Shown in pieces: positions 1,569 through 10,310 of a DNA stretch of 10,491 nucleotides. Below the pieces are notes generated by a model. That model saw only the letters and a list, made by a program, of their open reading frames with translations. It was not told the origin of the DNA and searched no databases. The stretch is from Desulfuromonadales bacterium (GTDB lineage Bacteria; Desulfobacterota; Desulfuromonadia; Desulfuromonadales; SZUA-540), in contig JAWSUS010000041.1 in assembly GCA_033549025.1 (NCBI GenBank), positions 1 through 10,491 on the forward strand. The letters are read 5' to 3'. A program made the translations under genes and the position numbers. Each line of letters starts with the position of its first letter. The stretch's first letter is position 1.

Positions 1569-3130
1569 AATTCCAATTGACATCGATTCAACGTAAGGTG
1601 CTCTGGTCGTTGTTCGCGGTGGTAGCGATAGTTCGTTTGTTGTCGCTGGGAAGCTATCCGCTGGCCGACACCACCGAGGCGCGCTATGGCGAAATCGCCC
1701 GGCTTATGGCAGAGACGGGGAATTGGATCACGCCGCAGATTCATCAGGGTGTTCCTTTCTGGGGAAAGCCCCCTTTGTCGACCTGGCTTTCGGCCCTTTC
1801 CATTCGCTTATTTGGAGTGAATGAGTTTGCCATTCGCTTGCCGTCGTTTCTACTGGCTCTTCTTGTTCTCGCCATGGTTTATTTCATCGCCGTCAGACAG
1901 CGTGGGCGAGATTTCGCCCTGGTGGCGACCGTTGTCCTGACCCTCTCGGTTCTTTTCTTCGTCAGCAGTGGGGCGGTCATGACCGATTCCGCCCTGCTTT
2001 TAGGCACGACACTTTCCATGATCGCCTTTTGGCGGATCATGACGTCAGAGGAACTCAGTGCCCTAGTTTGGGGGTATCTCTTTTTTGTCGGTCTGGCAAT
2101 CGGCCTCCTTGCCAAGGGCCCGGTGGCTTTGATTCTTGTCGGGCTGCCAGTGGGGGGCTGGGTCGTCTGGCAAAGACAGTGGGACCAGGTCTGGCACCGC
2201 CTTCCCTGGTTCTCGGGTCTTGCGCTTTGTTTTGCCTTGAGCGCACCCTGGTATTATCTGGCGGAATTAAAAACCCCGGGGTTTCTCGATTATTTCTTGA
2301 TTGGTGAACACTGGAAGCGCTTTATGGTTTCAGGCTGGCAGGGTGATCTTTACGGCAATGCCCACTCTCGGCCCCTTGGGACCATCTGGCTGTACTGGCT
2401 GGCAACAGCGCTGCCGTGGTCCCTGGTTTTGCTCGTCTCTTTTTTCAGGAAAGAGTTCCGACAAAAGGCTGTCTTTTTGCTCCGGCGCCGCGACGGCTGG
2501 GGGGTGTATCTGGTGCTGTGGTCTGTCGCCCCCATGGTGTTTTTCACCTTGGCCGGCAACATTCTGTGGACTTATGTCCTTCCAGGCCTCCCGGCCTTTG
2601 CCTTGCTTGTCGCTGAGTTGATGTTGCCGGGCCAGCCCGAGAGTACGGTAAAAACGATTTCGCCTGATCCTGGTGTCGGGAAAGTGATTGGGATAGCGGT
2701 CACCACCACGCTTTTGTTTGTATCGGCGTGGATGTTGATAGCGGGCCAAATTGTTCCGCCCAGAAAATGCCAAAAGGGACTGATTACAACTTACCAGGCT
2801 GCCCGGGCCGAGTCGGCCGGAGACTTGATCTATCTGTTCAAACGGCCTCACTCTGCCGAGTTCTACTCCCGGGGCCAAGCGATTTTAGTGGAACAGCCCG
2901 CAGAGGTGGAACGGTATTTTCAAAACAGTATCGATGATTACTTCGCGATCAAAAAAGGGGACTTGAAGCGGCTGCCCGCGGAAACTCGCAACCGTGTAAC
3001 AAAGATCGGCGAGTTCAACGGCTACTATCTTTTGAAGGAAAAATCACGTTATGATGAAGAAAAGAATTCCCGGCTTCTCCCGGAAAGCCCTGGGGCTTTC
3101 CGGGAGAAGCCGGAAGTTGGAATCATTTGA
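1565..3130 (+). CDS. ArnT/PMT-family (GT-C fold) integral membrane glycosyltransferase
   Basis: DTTEARYGEIARLM, WITP, FWGKPPLSTW, EFAIRLPS, LLAKGP, PWY, YVLP motifs and many TM segments. ATGA overlap with the GT2 stop. Confidence 0.92.
   Translation: MKFQLTSIQRKVLWSLFAVVAIVRLLSLGSYPLADTTEARYGEIARLMAETGNWITPQIHQGVPFWGKPPLSTWLSALSIRLFGVNEFAIRLPSFLLALLVLAMVYFIAVRQRGRDFALVATVVLTLSVLFFVSSGAVMTDSALLLGTTLSMIAFWRIMTSEELSALVWGYLFFVGLAIGLLAKGPVALILVGLPVGGWVVWQRQWDQVWHRLPWFSGLALCFALSAPWYYLAELKTPGFLDYFLIGEHWKRFMVSGWQGDLYGNAHSRPLGTIWLYWLATALPWSLVLLVSFFRKEFRQKAVFLLRRRDGWGVYLVLWSVAPMVFFTLAGNILWTYVLPGLPAFALLVAELMLPGQPESTVKTISPDPGVGKVIGIAVTTTLLFVSAWMLIAGQIVPPRKCQKGLITTYQAARAESAGDLIYLFKRPHSAEFYSRGQAILVEQPAEVERYFQNSIDDYFAIKKGDLKRLPAETRNRVTKIGEFNGYYLLKEKSRYDEEKNSRLLPESPGAFREKPEVGII
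3070..3113. repeat. Perfect 21-bp inverted repeat with a 2-nt spacer inside the 3' end of the ArnT-like gene
   Basis: ccggcttctcccggaaagccc (3070-3090), tg, gggctttccgggagaagccgg (3093-3113) are exact reverse complements. Confidence 0.95.
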
Positions 3131-5238: not shown

Positions 5239-7053
5239 TTATCCATGATGGGTCTGAATAATTTGCTTAAAAGCATCGTAAATTTTTTCGCCAAAAGCGA
5301 TGTGATCCTTGCCTCTATGCTGCATACTCTGTTTAGGATAAGGATAGATAATCCCATCATTATCCCAAACCCCATTGAGTATTGTCGCGGCGGCAACCAT
5401 ATCACGCAAAACGGGAATAGCATCATCGTCAGAATCATAACCTGCAGCAACCAGGAGAAACTTAAATTTGTCGGCAGGCCGCTTTTCAAATTCCAAGAGA
5501 TAGCAAATCCCCTCTTCAAAGTATATTTTAGCTGTAAAAACAATGCGCTTTCGCTTTTTCCTTTTCAAAAGATAAGTGAAGGGGCCAAGTTTACGCTGTT
5601 GATACTCCGTAGGTAGAAAACTTAGGGTGTGCTCCTTGAAAAAGGCCACCAACCCGAATAAGGAGATGGTTTCCCAGCGCCATCTCTTTTCGGCGCTCAA
5701 GCGCTCTAAGTAGTCGATGGTTTTTAGCAACGTCCACGTATTATCCTGGCCATCTGTTTCGTGCTCAGTCTCTAAATTCACCTGGCCTACAGGCCAATCA
5801 TGGCCCTCGGGGTCACCTGTCGACCAAAGTACCTCTGCGGGGTCGAATCTCACCATCGGCGGCGGTGCCCCTTTTCTTCCGATATACTCGTTTTTTGTGT
5901 TAAAGACGCGGGTCAACTTTTTCCGCTGAAGATCTAGGAATTGTCTGACTGGAGTGATGGGATTTGCTCTTATGTTCTGCACCCAGGAAGGGTCATCATG
6001 GTGGGTGTTCCCGAGATCCCAGTCGGTCTTGTCGATAGGTTCCTTCTGTGGACGATTTCCCCCTTCGCTCTGTTTTTTCCCTTCAGGGTTTCCATCTCCT
6101 GGGATTCCGTCATTGTCTCGGTCGTATTCCAAGTCTTCGAAGGGAAATTTCCCAGAACAGCTCAGTATCCTGAAAACCAAAAACCTTCTTTTGCCCATGG
6201 AATGGATGAATTTCCCTTGGAGGGACAATTTGGTCTCGCCTTCAAAAGGGAACTTCGCGACAAGGCTGGGCGGAGCTTCGTTTATGGCGGCCCGTTGGGC
6301 TGTCTTATAGATCGCCCTGGCTTCGAAGTCAGCCTTTTGAGAGAACGCGATTCGAGCAATTACCCAAGCATCAATTCCATCCATAGCGGCGCGCAATCGC
6401 AAGTGGGACAAGCCAGGTTCTTTGGCCGGTCGCATTTCGTTCGGATAGGTCTCGCTGGGATTGTACAGAGGGTTTGAAACCGACTCCATGTCTCCGCGGA
6501 GAATTAGCTTTGATAGTTTGGAGCTCAAGCCATAATAGAAGCGAAAAATCTCAGCACAAGGAATGAGAACGGCTAAAGGGACATTTTTATAGTTAATCGC
6601 AAGAATTTTCCCCAAACGAAAAGCTGAGCCATGCCCGATGAAATGCTCGGCACTTATGAGGTATTTACCGTTTTGACTATAACTGGACGAAACAACCTCG
6701 GTGGTTTCGTCTGAAATGTAAGTAGGAGATAAGTTAATCTTTTCTGGCTGATGCCAGGGTTTGCTTGAAGGTTTCCCGTACTGCCAAAACGAACCGATAT
6801 ACAGCTTAGGAAAGTATCCTACACGAATATTTTCAACCACGGTTTTCTGATGGTCAACGGCATTGTTATGGAAGGGGTCAGGGGAGCGCTTTCGCCAATC
6901 GTCGTGAAGAGGCTTGAATACTACCAATATCCGGGGTTCGGTTTTATGAAGACCGAGTCCACCAAACCAATCCAGACGCCATATGCGACCATCCATTATC
7001 GGCGACAGTTTTTCGCCGCTCCATCTTTGCTCACCTAGAATTGAAAATGCCAT
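5239..7053 (-). CDS. TnsE-like protein (remote homolog of the Tn7 target-selection protein)
   Basis: 604-aa ORF with RBS GAGGG. Its motif series is colinear with Tn7 TnsE as I recall it: PRILVVFKPL~WRIFVWFNPM, LIPCAEIFRFYY~HIPQLELARSLF, TKLSLQGK..FLVFRIL~WKLHVKGR..YLVEEIV, a charged linker, WSTGDP~VSTDEP, RIVFTAKI..CYLLEFE~RVIKAVGV..FVLLEVD, and terminal W...H. Comparison by eye only. Confidence 0.7.
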   Translation of the reverse strand: MAFSILGEQRWSGEKLSPIMDGRIWRLDWFGGLGLHKTEPRILVVFKPLHDDWRKRSPDPFHNNAVDHQKTVVENIRVGYFPKLYIGSFWQYGKPSSKPWHQPEKINLSPTYISDETTEVVSSSYSQNGKYLISAEHFIGHGSAFRLGKILAINYKNVPLAVLIPCAEIFRFYYGLSSKLSKLILRGDMESVSNPLYNPSETYPNEMRPAKEPGLSHLRLRAAMDGIDAWVIARIAFSQKADFEARAIYKTAQRAAINEAPPSLVAKFPFEGETKLSLQGKFIHSMGKRRFLVFRILSCSGKFPFEDLEYDRDNDGIPGDGNPEGKKQSEGGNRPQKEPIDKTDWDLGNTHHDDPSWVQNIRANPITPVRQFLDLQRKKLTRVFNTKNEYIGRKGAPPPMVRFDPAEVLWSTGDPEGHDWPVGQVNLETEHETDGQDNTWTLLKTIDYLERLSAEKRWRWETISLFGLVAFFKEHTLSFLPTEYQQRKLGPFTYLLKRKKRKRIVFTAKIYFEEGICYLLEFEKRPADKFKFLLVAAGYDSDDDAIPVLRDMVAAATILNGVWDNDGIIYPYPKQSMQHRGKDHIAFGEKIYDAFKQIIQTHHG

Positions 7054-7199
7054 TGTTTTCCCTCTGAAGAACCAGGAAAAAGCCAGTTTCAGTTGGCAAA
7101 AAAAGGGGCTAGATTAAATTTTGAGGGCACCGAAAAGGAAAATCCAAAAGCCAGAGATATCGGCAAGGATGACATCTTTAGCATGAACAGTCCTCGGCA

Positions 7200-7252
7200 A
7201 AGATAAAAATACCCACCGGCAAGGAAGGTGGCAGTTCTCCCTCGCCGGTGAG
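7200..7252 (-). terminator. Probable intrinsic terminator after the 72-aa gene
   Basis: Imperfect GC-rich stem caccggcaagg / cctcgccggtg, followed on the minus strand by GGTATTTTTATCTTT, just past the stop at 7269. Confidence 0.5.
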
Positions 7253-7268
7253 CAGGCATGCGTTGTGC

Positions 7269-7487
7269 TCAGCTAGTGTGGCAAGGCCTGCAGCAGTAAA
7301 TGCAACCATTGACCCTTGCCGTGGGCCATTTTTGTTTTGCAAGAGCGACGGCTCCATGACATGACGTGTGAGTTCCAAGATCGATTTGATTCGCTGCGGC
7401 TGGCATAAAAGAACAACCGGTGGAGGCGTTATGAACCTCATGATCTCCGTTTGACTGAGGATTTTTATTTAGGACGAATCTGGGCAT
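7269..7487 (-). CDS. Small Cys/His-rich conserved hypothetical protein (72 aa, probably metal-binding)
   Basis: AGGAG 8 nt before ATG 7487. The sequence N..Q.NGDHEVH...GC..MP...N...LG....C..AV..AK......NGC.YC...CH matches a small uncharacterised protein type I recall from accessory regions. Confidence 0.85.
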   Translation of the reverse strand: MPRFVLNKNPQSNGDHEVHNASTGCSFMPAAANQIDLGTHTSCHGAVALAKQKWPTARVNGCIYCCRPCHTS

Positions 7488-7678
7488 AATTTTGACTCCT
7501 ATAGCGTTCAAGCTAAAGCTTTTTGATTGACGTTGCCGTGGACAGTAAAAGATCCCAGTGCAGGCTGGGCTTCGTTTGCTGTCACCGGGCTCTCATGTCT
7601 TGGGGGTTTGATTTTTGAGGAGTTTTGCAGTTTACGGTGACATGGGTACCTCCTTCGACAATAGCCGCAATTTGCGGG

Positions 7679-7707
7679 TTGCGATGCCGAAGGAGGTGGG
7701 GTATAGT
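7679..7707 (+). promoter_or_regulatory. sigma70-type promoter of a putative antisense RNA
   Basis: TTGCGA (7679-7684), 17 bp, TATAGT (7702-7707). Confidence 0.6.
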
Positions 7708-7713
7708 TGCCAA

Positions 7714-7805
7714 CGTCAAACGCCAGTTGGCCGATTCCCCCTCCTTCGGTCACCATGGTTTTAAGAGCCCCTGCGATGCCCTGCCCGGCAACGTAGGGGC
7801 TTTTT
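7714..7805 (+). ncRNA. Putative ~90-nt cis-antisense (counter-transcribed) RNA
   Basis: Bounded by the promoter above and the terminator below; fully complementary to the 5' leader of the leftward transcript predicted to start near 7806. Start position is inferred. Confidence 0.5.
7763..7805 (+). terminator. Intrinsic terminator
   Basis: agcccctgcgatgcc (7766-7780) pairs with ggcaacgtaggggct (7787-7801), with one G-U and one mismatch, followed by a T run. Confidence 0.8.
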
Positions 7806-7812
7806 CATTGCC

Positions 7813-7840
7813 ACGCTACCATATACGGAAAACCTGTCAA
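7813..7840 (-). promoter_or_regulatory. Leftward sigma70-type promoter
   Basis: Minus strand TTGACA (7840-7835), 16 bp, TAGCGT (7818-7813) with an extended TGn element. Confidence 0.55.
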
Positions 7841-7846
7841 GATAAA

Positions 7847-7894
7847 AACCTATATTTTGTGTTGATCCTAAATTTTAAACACAACATGTAGTGT
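7847..7894. promoter_or_regulatory. Tandem NrdR-box-like operators
   Basis: aacCtAtATtTtGtgt (7847-7862) and acaCaAcATgTaGtgt (7879-7894) both fit acaCwAtATaTwGtgt at the conserved positions; their starts are 32 bp apart. Confidence 0.7.
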
Positions 7895-8018
7895 TTTGGT
7901 AGGGGTTGGTTGGGCCCGAGTTGTGTTTTTGCGCTTTTTCTGGTGCCCCAGTCCTGTAGCTATACAGGTCAAATCCTCTCTCACCCTCAGTCAGCTTTGT
8001 AGACAGAAGCCAGAAACA

Positions 8019-8093
8019 ACCATATCACGACAAGATAGGTGGGAAAATATCAGGAAATTCCCGATAGAGATTCTGGCAAGGATTTGTTATGGT
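8019..8093. promoter_or_regulatory. Palindromic operator TATCAGGAAATTCCCGATA flanked by divergent extended -10 elements
   Basis: Palindrome at 8048-8066; TGnTATGGT on + (8088-8093) and on - (8024-8019), 31 and 33 bp from the dyad centre. Confidence 0.55.
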
Positions 8094-8216
8094 GCGATCC
8101 TTTGTCTTTGGCTTAGGGGGAGAATCCACCTAGAGGGGCAGTTCGCCAAGTCGCAGGTGGAGCCCTTTTGATTTGCTCCCGCCCCTCTGCAAATTTGCAA
8201 TAAAACTGGACACGGG

Positions 8217-8796: not shown

Positions 8797-8910
8797 TGTC
8801 GGGAATTTCCTGAGGCGACAGGCATGGTCTGTTGTGCTAGGGTGGCAGAAGGCCATGTTTCCTGAGTTTATTGTGATTTCTTAAAGCCCGACCCCTATGT
8901 TCAGGGAGAG
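8797..8910 (+). repeat. Copy A of a ~110-bp diverged direct repeat (operator + promoter + leader)
   Basis: 22 bp identical to copy B (8802-8823 vs 10202-10223); 42/50 identical over 8801-8850; alignable to about 8910. Contains GCGACA-17-TAGGGT with extended TG. Confidence 0.85.
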
Positions 8911-9094: not shown

Positions 9095-9592
9095 ATGAAG
9101 ACCTTTTTATATATTCTCGTTTTCATTGTCCAGGCCGGCTTTGCGGCTGCTCATCCCGGTGGCCTTGATGCCAGCGGTGGCCATTACAAAAGGGCAACAG
9201 GAGAATACCATCTACATCAGGACAAAGACCCCTCCATAAAAACTGCCTCTCTGGTCCAAGATTCACCAGCTCTTTCCGCTGCGGCCCGTGAACTAAAAAT
9301 CAACGATTATTTCCGCTCTGCCAATGAAAAAGTCGGTGCCTTCGATTGCGATCTGGTCATTCACGAGCGAGACGTCTCAACTTCCCTCAAGGCGGTCGTT
9401 AAGGCCCGGGATGGGTATCGCTGCGTGATCTGCGGCAGTACCCACCAGCTTGAAGTCGATCACCGAAGAGCCCTTATGAATGGTGGGGACAATGCCGAAG
9501 GAAACCTCGCAACGCTTTGCGACGACTGCCATACGGCAAAAACGAGGATGGATAATTCGTTGCGGCGGAAGAGGGAGAGAGTTTGCCGTTGA
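9095..9592 (+). CDS. Exported HNH endonuclease-domain protein with an N-terminal YHYH-type motif
   Basis: Signal peptide MKTFLYILVFIVQAGFAAA, then HPGGLDASGGHYKRATGEYHLH; C-terminal RDGYRCVICG..LEVDH..GGDN..NLATLCDDCH (zinc-binding HNH). Confidence 0.85.
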   Translation: MKTFLYILVFIVQAGFAAAHPGGLDASGGHYKRATGEYHLHQDKDPSIKTASLVQDSPALSAAARELKINDYFRSANEKVGAFDCDLVIHERDVSTSLKAVVKARDGYRCVICGSTHQLEVDHRRALMNGGDNAEGNLATLCDDCHTAKTRMDNSLRRKRERVCR

Positions 9593-9757: not shown

Positions 9758-10115
9758 ATGAAAAAACTTGTACTAACCATTTCATTACTAGCTATTTCCT
9801 CAATTTGTTTTGCCGAAGGATTGATCCACCCACTTGATTTTAAAGGGACAGAGGCAGAAAAAAACAGGTTATTGCCTTGATTGAACAAAACGTCAAAGAA
9901 ACATATACAGCACTCGGCATGGGCGACCCAGCGACATTAAGAATGATGGAAAAAACAGAATTGGATTTTTTAAACAGCTTACACAAGTAACAAACAGACA
10001 TCTGCTTGATAGTGTAATTGACCAATATTGCTCAATAGGGCTGTGCGACTACAATACCATCCTAATGATGTACAAAGAACAGGAACGCGAGCCGAATAAT
10101 AAACTTCAATGGTAA
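9758..10115 (+). pseudogene. Secreted hypothetical protein (~119 aa) broken by two homopolymer frameshifts (or sequencing errors)
   Basis: RBS AAGGAG, ATG 9758, signal peptide MKKLVLTISLLAISSICFA. Adding one A to the A7 run (9858-9864) and one T to the T6 run (9966-9971) gives a continuous ORF ending ...NNKLQW-TAA at 10115, directly before a terminator. Confidence 0.8.
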
Positions 10116-10196: not shown

Positions 10197-10310
10197 TATC
10201 AGGAATTTCCTGAGGCGACAGGCGTGGCTTGGCGTGCTAGGCTGACAGAAAGGGCATATTTTCTGAGTTCTTTGCAATTACTCGAAGTCGAGTCCTGTGC
10301 TCAGAAAGAA
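10197..10310 (+). repeat. Copy B of the diverged direct repeat (operator + promoter + leader)
   Basis: TATCAGGAATTTCCTGAG palindrome followed by GCGACA-17-TAGGCT; exactly 1400 bp from copy A. Confidence 0.85.

Follow-up and report, generated by a model that had tools for sequence, protein, structure and literature searches.

A paired NrdR-type operator, conserved on a mobile cassette ahead of a predicted antisense-checked leader RNA, in a Desulfuromonadales bacterium

NrdR is among the most conserved regulons (PMC5343134, accessible text). Its described operators, at nrdAB, nrdHIEF, nrdDG and nrdRJ of E. coli, S. coelicolor and P. aeruginosa, consist of two 16-bp boxes with six core positions, separated by a 16-bp unconserved linker and located beside a promoter, in a host that carries nrdR; the locus described here resembles them in all of these respects. 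According to the accessible part of PMC13584703, the NrdR of other bacteria binds with dATP/ATP to pairs 31-32 bp apart and lets go with ATP alone, and the six highly conserved positions of its box are C4, A6, A8, T9, T11 and G13. Genome-wide work on E. coli and P. aeruginosa (bioRxiv 10.1101/2025.03.28.645925) reports, in the accessible portion of the preprint, box pairs only at ribonucleotide reductase operons and single boxes at dnaA and topA. The present locus departs from this canonical regulon in its target, which is a non-coding leader with a mini-ORF on mobile DNA and not a ribonucleotide reductase gene.

At the RNA level, the closest described systems are of several kinds. The LexA-repressed type I loci tisB/istR, dinQ/agrB and symE/symR combine a host repressor on the sense promoter with a hidden Shine-Dalgarno (SD) sequence and an antisense RNA that has, as is predicted for our cassette, its own promoter and terminator. 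In the cassette, however, NrdR would replace LexA, and behind the hidden SD there is only a mini-ORF and no toxic peptide or protein. The uORF/Rho attenuators tnaC, speFL and cruR share with the cassette a uORF stop, a C-rich tract and downstream genes, and the last residue of TnaC is also Pro; the cassette peptide, however, has only 3-4 residues, and its control would lie with an antisense RNA and NrdR rather than with an exit-tunnel ligand. The CI RNA of phage P4 and the IsrK RNA of Gifsy-1 are mobile-element small RNAs that choose between leader folds or impose premature termination (PMC4825925, accessible text), but these are same-strand RNAs, unlike the cassette antisense RNA, and share no sequence family with it. 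Finally, CreT of P. aeruginosa is a bacteriostatic RNA toxin made up of an SD, a start, one codon, Pro-Pro-stop and a hairpin (bioRxiv 10.64898/2026.06.02.729485, accessible text). CreTA1/2 and the cassette have in common a strong SD, a 3-4-codon ORF ending in Pro-stop and a repressor site upstream of the -35; the repressor is Csy-CreA there and NrdR here, and the cassette adds a cis-antisense RNA.

The window, by which we mean the whole stretch of 10,491 nt that was analysed, is a complete contig (JAWSUS010000041.1; C41) of a Desulfuromonadales genome of 3.39 Mb and 58% GC (GCA_033549025.1; G000). Its left half encodes a GtrA/GT2/PMT glycosylation set and a two-component pair, with a 26-bp inverted repeat (92% complementary, 3065-3118) at the end of the PMT gene, directly before the response regulator. 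The right half is mobile DNA of lower GC content, both contig ends are repeats common to many contigs, and the contig as a whole is a mosaic. A YHYH/HNH-domain protein is encoded at 9095-9592 and an apparently frameshifted secreted-protein gene at 9758-10060. Furthermore, a 15-bp palindrome occurs three times in the window (8050-8064, 8799-8813 and 10199-10213) and in eight more places in the genome; two of the three window copies fall within a 55-nt direct repeat, and the palindrome is possibly an operator for another regulator. The window ORFs include no nrd gene, as the initial annotation had stated, the host nrdJ/A being on contig C8 and nrdD on C13.

That annotation, made from the sequence alone, had proposed two NrdR-like 16-mers 32 bp apart, and these are indeed present: a proximal box at 7847-7862 (14.9 bits) and a distal box at 7879-7894 (21.4 bits, the second-best single site genome-wide), with a 16-bp linker between them. 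The boxes have 3 and 2 mismatches to the consensus employed at that time and both retain all six core positions. To score them we have used a matrix built from the nrdD and nrdJ/A upstream regions of 30 relatives of the same order (54 of the 56 regions being long enough), with G000 left out and the pair spacing free between 20 and 44 bp; this matrix was seeded with the initial consensus, and same-genus promoters are part of its training set. In 53 of the 54 training regions the best pair has a spacing of 31, 32 or 33 bp. The window pair, with a sum of 36.3 bits, ranks first in the 3.39-Mb genome and exceeds 47 of the 54 training promoters, and a genome-wide scan with spacings from 18 to 60 bp gave no pair above it. 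The comparison with the host's own nrd promoters, which had been suggested as a check, also favours the pair: nrdD reaches 34.6 bits and nrdJ 30.7, whereas in 300 block-shuffled windows no pair scores above 17.3 bits (mean of the best pairs 1.9). The presence of the regulator, likewise put forward as a check, is equally clear, the host nrdR on C19 being intact (TIGR00244 match, 208 bits).

The boxes were said to lie 6 bp upstream of the -35 of a leftward promoter, and this geometry stands, with the qualification that the promoter is a predicted one with a weak -10. It occupies 7813-7840 on the minus strand, with a -35 TTGACA (7840-7835) that begins 6 bp from the proximal box, a 16-bp spacer and an extended -10 TG-n-TAGCGT (7818-7813), and would start the leader near 7806. 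The -10 matches at just 3 of 6 positions and the promoter is missing from the list of a consensus scan; we infer it from the TTGAC and TG-TAG motifs that are kept in 10 of 10 aligned loci. Its layout, in which a short T-rich gap separates the box pair from TTGAC, is the nrdD one: counted by eye, 22 of 27 nrdD promoters of relatives have the same pair followed by TTGAC within 6-10 nt, whereas in the relatives' nrdJ promoters one box sits between the -35 and the -10. From this likeness to nrdD, the boxes being upstream of the -35, we assume that NrdR would act here as a repressor and not as an activator.

To see how widely the cassette is distributed we have searched several collections. Among 233 genomes of the order, three (G027, G137 and G159) contain long DNA homologues, three short matches being excluded; in 401 genomes of the class the same three long matches were found, and 18 other genomes gave only 22-55-nt matches, which were dropped. 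A pattern scan of metagenomes produced 11 matches, of which 8 are this cassette (L096, L098 and L102 are unrelated and were dropped); L101 repeats L094 and was omitted from the alignments. A covariance model matched 3 of 151 genomes of the order, G000 with its single copy included. The one match of a viral scan is unrelated, scans of genome collections gave 0 and 6 matches with none accepted by the covariance model, and a plasmid search returned only one 55-nt match. These wider searches thus yielded no distantly related copies.

The pair is kept at all 11 distinct loci that were scored, always with a spacing of 31 or 32 bp and with pair scores of 21.6-41.0. The proximal box is 6-7 bp from TTGAC in 11 of 11 and the distal box starts 54 bp from the -35; where the spacer has lost 1 bp, a 1-bp longer gap offsets the loss and the 54 bp are preserved. 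Identity across the 11 loci is 91% for the core bases, 59% for the remaining box bases and 41% for the spacer. Conserved cores with a drifting spacer fit selection for protein binding, though the loci are kin, and a count of 10/10 in the aligned set represents a few evolutionary events, not ten. All four genomes with a cassette (G000, G027, G137 and G159) have nrdR. The weakest pair of all (21.6) is that of G159, in which the leader has been replaced after the element that we call A below. Considering the host nrdR, the top score, the conservation at homologues and the geometry of the host nrdD, the two sites seem to be a genuine NrdR operator under selection, and we hold it very probable that the pair is functional; a tie to dNTP status is plausible on the same sequence grounds.

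The initial annotation had offered as its own alternative the relic promoter of a deleted replication gene. A captured nrdD-type promoter that has lost its gene and is drifting would account for the nrdD-like geometry, and the mosaic contig with its repeated ends and the apparently frameshifted gene near 9758 would suit such a history. It would not account for core bases that are kept while the spacer varies, nor for the compensatory RNA changes described below; moreover, the ORF lists of the homologous loci contain no ribonucleotide reductase or replication-gene remnant downstream. We therefore consider a relic very improbable.

The loci resemble one another in sequence from the distal box as far as the stop codon at 7632, beyond which the genes differ: the homologous cassettes precede small genes other than those of this window. 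Here the first gene downstream encodes a Cys/His-rich protein of 72 aa (7269-7487, minus strand; phrog_4298, E 6e-23), which has no Pfam family and whose Atlas clusters are unnamed. Downstream small genes were rejected as cassette markers, homologues of them elsewhere having an upstream box pair in 0 of 23 loci. On the other side, in the homologues, the cassette comes after an HTH/M78-peptidase (RmrA-like) gene and a gene that we call PIN-like from reading its sequence, without a family match. Helicase-nuclease, restriction, RmrA-, MkoA- and Ppl-like genes are nearby in homologous loci and, judged from ORF lists, several of these loci have comM fragments and the G027 and G137 cassettes have conjugation-like genes in their vicinity.

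The other neighbour of interest is a 604-aa protein (5239-7053, minus strand) for which sequence comparison gave no family or PDB match; it was identified by fold alone. Its predicted model (pLDDT 86) has the TnsE C-terminal, DNA-binding domain as top Foldseek matches and aligns with this domain at Z 14.2 (rmsd 2.6 over 140 aligned residues), against Z 6.4 for the next fold. The initial annotation, which cited the targeting of Tn7 to replicating DNA by TnsE through the beta clamp, suggested that the locus may be wired to the dNTP pool and thereby to replication stress; in that reading NrdR would control tnsE and time Tn7-like transposition. The modelled fold and the position of the gene, which is co-oriented with the promoter and some 750 bp downstream of it, are in accord with such control, as is the Tn6022-like element that splits comM in the host. 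Between promoter and gene, however, there is a terminator-like 18-bp hairpin with a U-rich tail (7197-7254, minus strand; -33 kcal/mol, z -4.6), the family has no match at E <= 1e-10 in the cassette genomes G027, G137 and G159, none of the homologous cassettes that we inspected has a tnsE close by, and an upstream box pair is found at 0 of 4 other TnsE-like genes of the order (for G085 just 241 bp upstream are available). We thus rejected tnsE as the NrdR target; the gene is probably outside the NrdR-gated unit, and of the readings discussed here its control by NrdR is the least likely. The comM-splitting element of G000 is scattered over the start of contig C7, the end of C11 and C48, repeats having broken it up; it has a tnsA-like gene, tniQ and transposon-type ends, on contigs other than C41. 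Tn6022 elements that target comM are already known to have a distant tnsE at their far end (PMC11014353 and PMC10293859, accessible texts).

What the initial annotation overlooked is the conserved target of the promoter, a putatively antisense-checked leader with a Pro-stop mini-ORF (7632-7806, minus strand; z -4.3). Three elements of this structured leader can form two alternative folds: A (7737-7752), an SD-like decoy that lies under the antisense RNA loop; B (7684-7701), an anti-SD; and C (7648-7660), the SD of the mini-ORF with GGAGG at 7653-7649. Pairing of A with B would free the SD and pairing of B with C would hide it. Element B is an invariant block in the alignment, an invariance that is partly built in, since 7 of the 10 aligned loci were found by an exact 20-nt pattern within it. 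In the window the B:C fold is the more stable (-79.9 versus -75.4 kcal/mol, a gap of 4.5), but in a truncated leader transcript A:B would form first; of seven homologues folded, five prefer A:B and two B:C, by margins of 1.6-8.1 kcal/mol. Across the alignment 96% of the cells in the named helices, B:C among them, are paired, a value reached by 0 of 500 shuffles, and the B:C helix has G-C/G-U exchanges among loci. Three contigs of a metatranscriptome run (X1), at a depth of about 2, cover only 7629-8112; they are without strand or ends, include promoter DNA and are possibly DNA themselves, and we set them aside as evidence of expression.

The mini-ORF (7632-7643, minus strand) reads Met-Ser-Pro-stop, and Pro-stop is present in 10 of 10 aligned loci. 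Its variants are MSP* (3 loci), MRSP* (5) and MHPP* (2), the codons change and both TAA and TAG serve as stops, so that the last Pro is the sole invariant part of the peptide before the stop; as a background, 7% of 1,946 long host ORFs have a C-terminal Pro. After the stop comes a C-rich, G-poor and weakly structured tract (7587-7631, minus strand; 16 C and 5 G), a candidate Rho loading site. In raw counts the 45 nt following the stop hold 13-20 C against 5-8 G in 10 of 10 loci, and the host has a rho gene. An 82-aa ORF at 7756-7508 was rejected as a product, for its reading frame shifts between loci and no family was found.

On the opposite strand we predict an antisense promoter, TTGCGA-17-TATAGT (7679-7707, plus strand), whose spacer is the complement of element B. 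Both hexamers are invariant in 10 of 10 loci, the -35 lying within the pattern that found 7 of them. The promoter would give a cis-antisense RNA of about 93 nt (7714-7806, plus strand; z -5.3), composed of a hairpin with a C/U-rich anti-SD loop and an intrinsic terminator. Its stems each have one compensatory change, common to 3 related loci. Since this RNA covers element A, its binding would leave B:C alone. No Rfam family matched the cassette RNAs at gathering score, and the resemblance of the antisense RNA to ar7 is weak (E 0.14, far under gathering). Alternatively, NrdR might tune, via the overlapping transcript, the level of a small RNA, antisense or leader, that acts in trans and is the principal product. 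The stability of the antisense RNA, its exposed CCCCCUCC loop and the slight ar7 likeness might be cited for this, but the loop is wholly accounted for as the complement of element A and the other strand keeps an SD, an ATG and Pro-stop; we find a trans-acting product improbable.

The reading that we favour, with a probability of roughly 0.45, is that the conserved NrdR-type operator on the mobile cassette represses this antisense-checked leader and that a lack of dNTPs would turn on the small genes beyond it. Low dATP, or the entry of naked DNA into a new cell, would raise leader transcription. When the antisense RNA binds element A, B would be held over the SD and Rho could load on the C-rich tract; when leader exceeds antisense, A:B would form, a ribosome would pause at Pro-stop and the tract would be shielded. 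The downstream gene, here that of the 72-aa protein, would then be made, and the transcript would stop at 7197-7254, short of tnsE. NrdR would restrict leader synthesis while the antisense RNA soaks up the leak. We prefer such a Rho-antitermination output because the C-rich tract is in every locus, the host has rho and only the last Pro of the peptide is invariant. There is precedent in tnaC, where a ribosome stalled at the uORF stop shields the adjacent Rut site (PMC12360218, accessible text), and a C-terminal Pro-Pro hampers termination (PMC2998420, accessible text). It counts against the model that the genes downstream vary between this window and the homologues, that relatives of these genes at other loci have no box pair, and that a peptide of 3-4 codons is too short for TnaC-like ligand sensing.

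The mini-ORF may control what follows it, as in the antitermination model, or be itself the effector. As effector it would be a ribosome-stalling RNA toxin built, like CreT, on proline codons and doubly locked by NrdR and a cis-antisense antitoxin, and would bring dormancy or abortive infection when dNTPs drop or NrdR is disabled, with addiction to the element. A repressor together with a cis-antisense lock is the layout of the LexA-controlled type I toxins, and the conserved unit stops at the mini-ORF stop while the downstream genes are interchangeable, both of which speak for a toxin. So does the vicinity of homologous loci to RmrA-, MkoA-, Ppl-like and restriction genes. Two of the ten loci (L093 and L094) have a start, one codon, Pro, Pro and stop and in this match, by description, the 15-nt layout of CreT from P. 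aeruginosa; the repressor target of CreT is also upstream of the -35 (both from the accessible text of bioRxiv 10.64898/2026.06.02.729485), and minigene toxicity is documented (PMC8708949, accessible text). However, the window and 7 others end in Ser-Pro-stop, whereas CreT2 needed two consecutive Pro according to the accessible part of the same preprint. The stable downstream hairpin that CreT requires does not appear to be conserved either: one is predicted about 32 nt beyond the mini-ORF, with z -0.5 here and z < -2 in just 3 of 11 loci. Sequestration of a rare-codon tRNA was rejected, the mini-ORF codons not being uniformly rare in the host (TCA 2.7, as against CCG 16.1 and TCC 14.8 per 1000). 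Moreover, the window ORFs include no cas gene, and three of the four cassette genomes (G000, G137 and G159) are without a cas1 match; in the fourth, cas1 is about 1.1 Mb from the cassette.

On balance we regard the toxin as unlikely, if still a serious contender, and say the same of its elaboration in which NrdR serves as the guard of a mobile cassette in a defence island. There, dATP drained by phage replication or by nucleotide-depleting defences, or NrdR disabled by a phage, would free the proline-stop RNA toxin from its cis-antisense antitoxin and let it stall ribosomes. If true, it would amount to a toxin-antitoxin system that senses dNTPs and is free of protein, and to a paired-box target of NrdR beyond the ribonucleotide reductases. 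The Rho-antitermination and toxin outputs are not mutually exclusive, and the toxin reading is close behind.

Further NrdR-type sites were noticed elsewhere in the host. At 262698-262745 of C1 (loci L156-L177) a pair precedes pilM and a small HTH gene, and 9 of 22 genomes have one of 20 bits or more at the same place; genes of the type IV pilus may respond to dNTP status. At 12750-12795 of C11 (L178-L201) another is situated between gidB and parA; here 7 of 24 loci reach 20 bits, six with the pair at this position. These two conserved pairs, G000 being included in the counts, suggest, at the level of sequence, a wider NrdR regulon in the order, which makes the island site less singular and broadens the claim. 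At 107389-107436 of C7 (L202) boxes of 22.3 and 1.9 bits, spaced 32 bp and followed after 6 bp by TTGACG, precede a ubiquitin-like defence-type operon of a small ORF and genes with ThiF and Prok-JAB domains. At 19116-19173 of C30 a pair 42 bp apart (27.5 bits) is found between divergent xseA-like and parA-like genes, named by ORF reading. Finally, genome G007 has a look-alike cassette of different sequence (L122, 13640-13860), in a comM insertion, where it directly follows a tnsE-like gene. It comprises a single NrdR-type box near the start site, a reverse terminator, an SD-like/anti-SD/SD triplet, a start-stop mini-ORF and a convergent promoter, and has no homologue in 150 other genomes of the class.

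The literature covered, with RegPrecise lists and the supplements of PMC5343134 outside its scope, contained no NrdR-controlled mobile, antisense or mini-ORF locus, and the accessible text of PMC12051234 has nothing on NrdR-controlled mobile or RNA cassettes. Judged by its sequence features, the cassette has a genuine and conserved operator of the NrdR type, placed on a predicted RNA switch not described before; its parts are of known kinds, and their combination was not found in print. As NrdRs bind heterologous boxes (PMC13584703, accessible text), the cassette of about 270 bp is testable in E. coli. A toxic mini-ORF would extend proline-stop mini-genes past CRISPR loci. Many anti-phage systems and phages disturb dNTP pools, and an NrdR-gated RNA switch is a testable means of sensing such disturbance; more generally, a conserved box pair on a mobile cassette would mean that mobile DNA can read the dATP/ATP state of its host.
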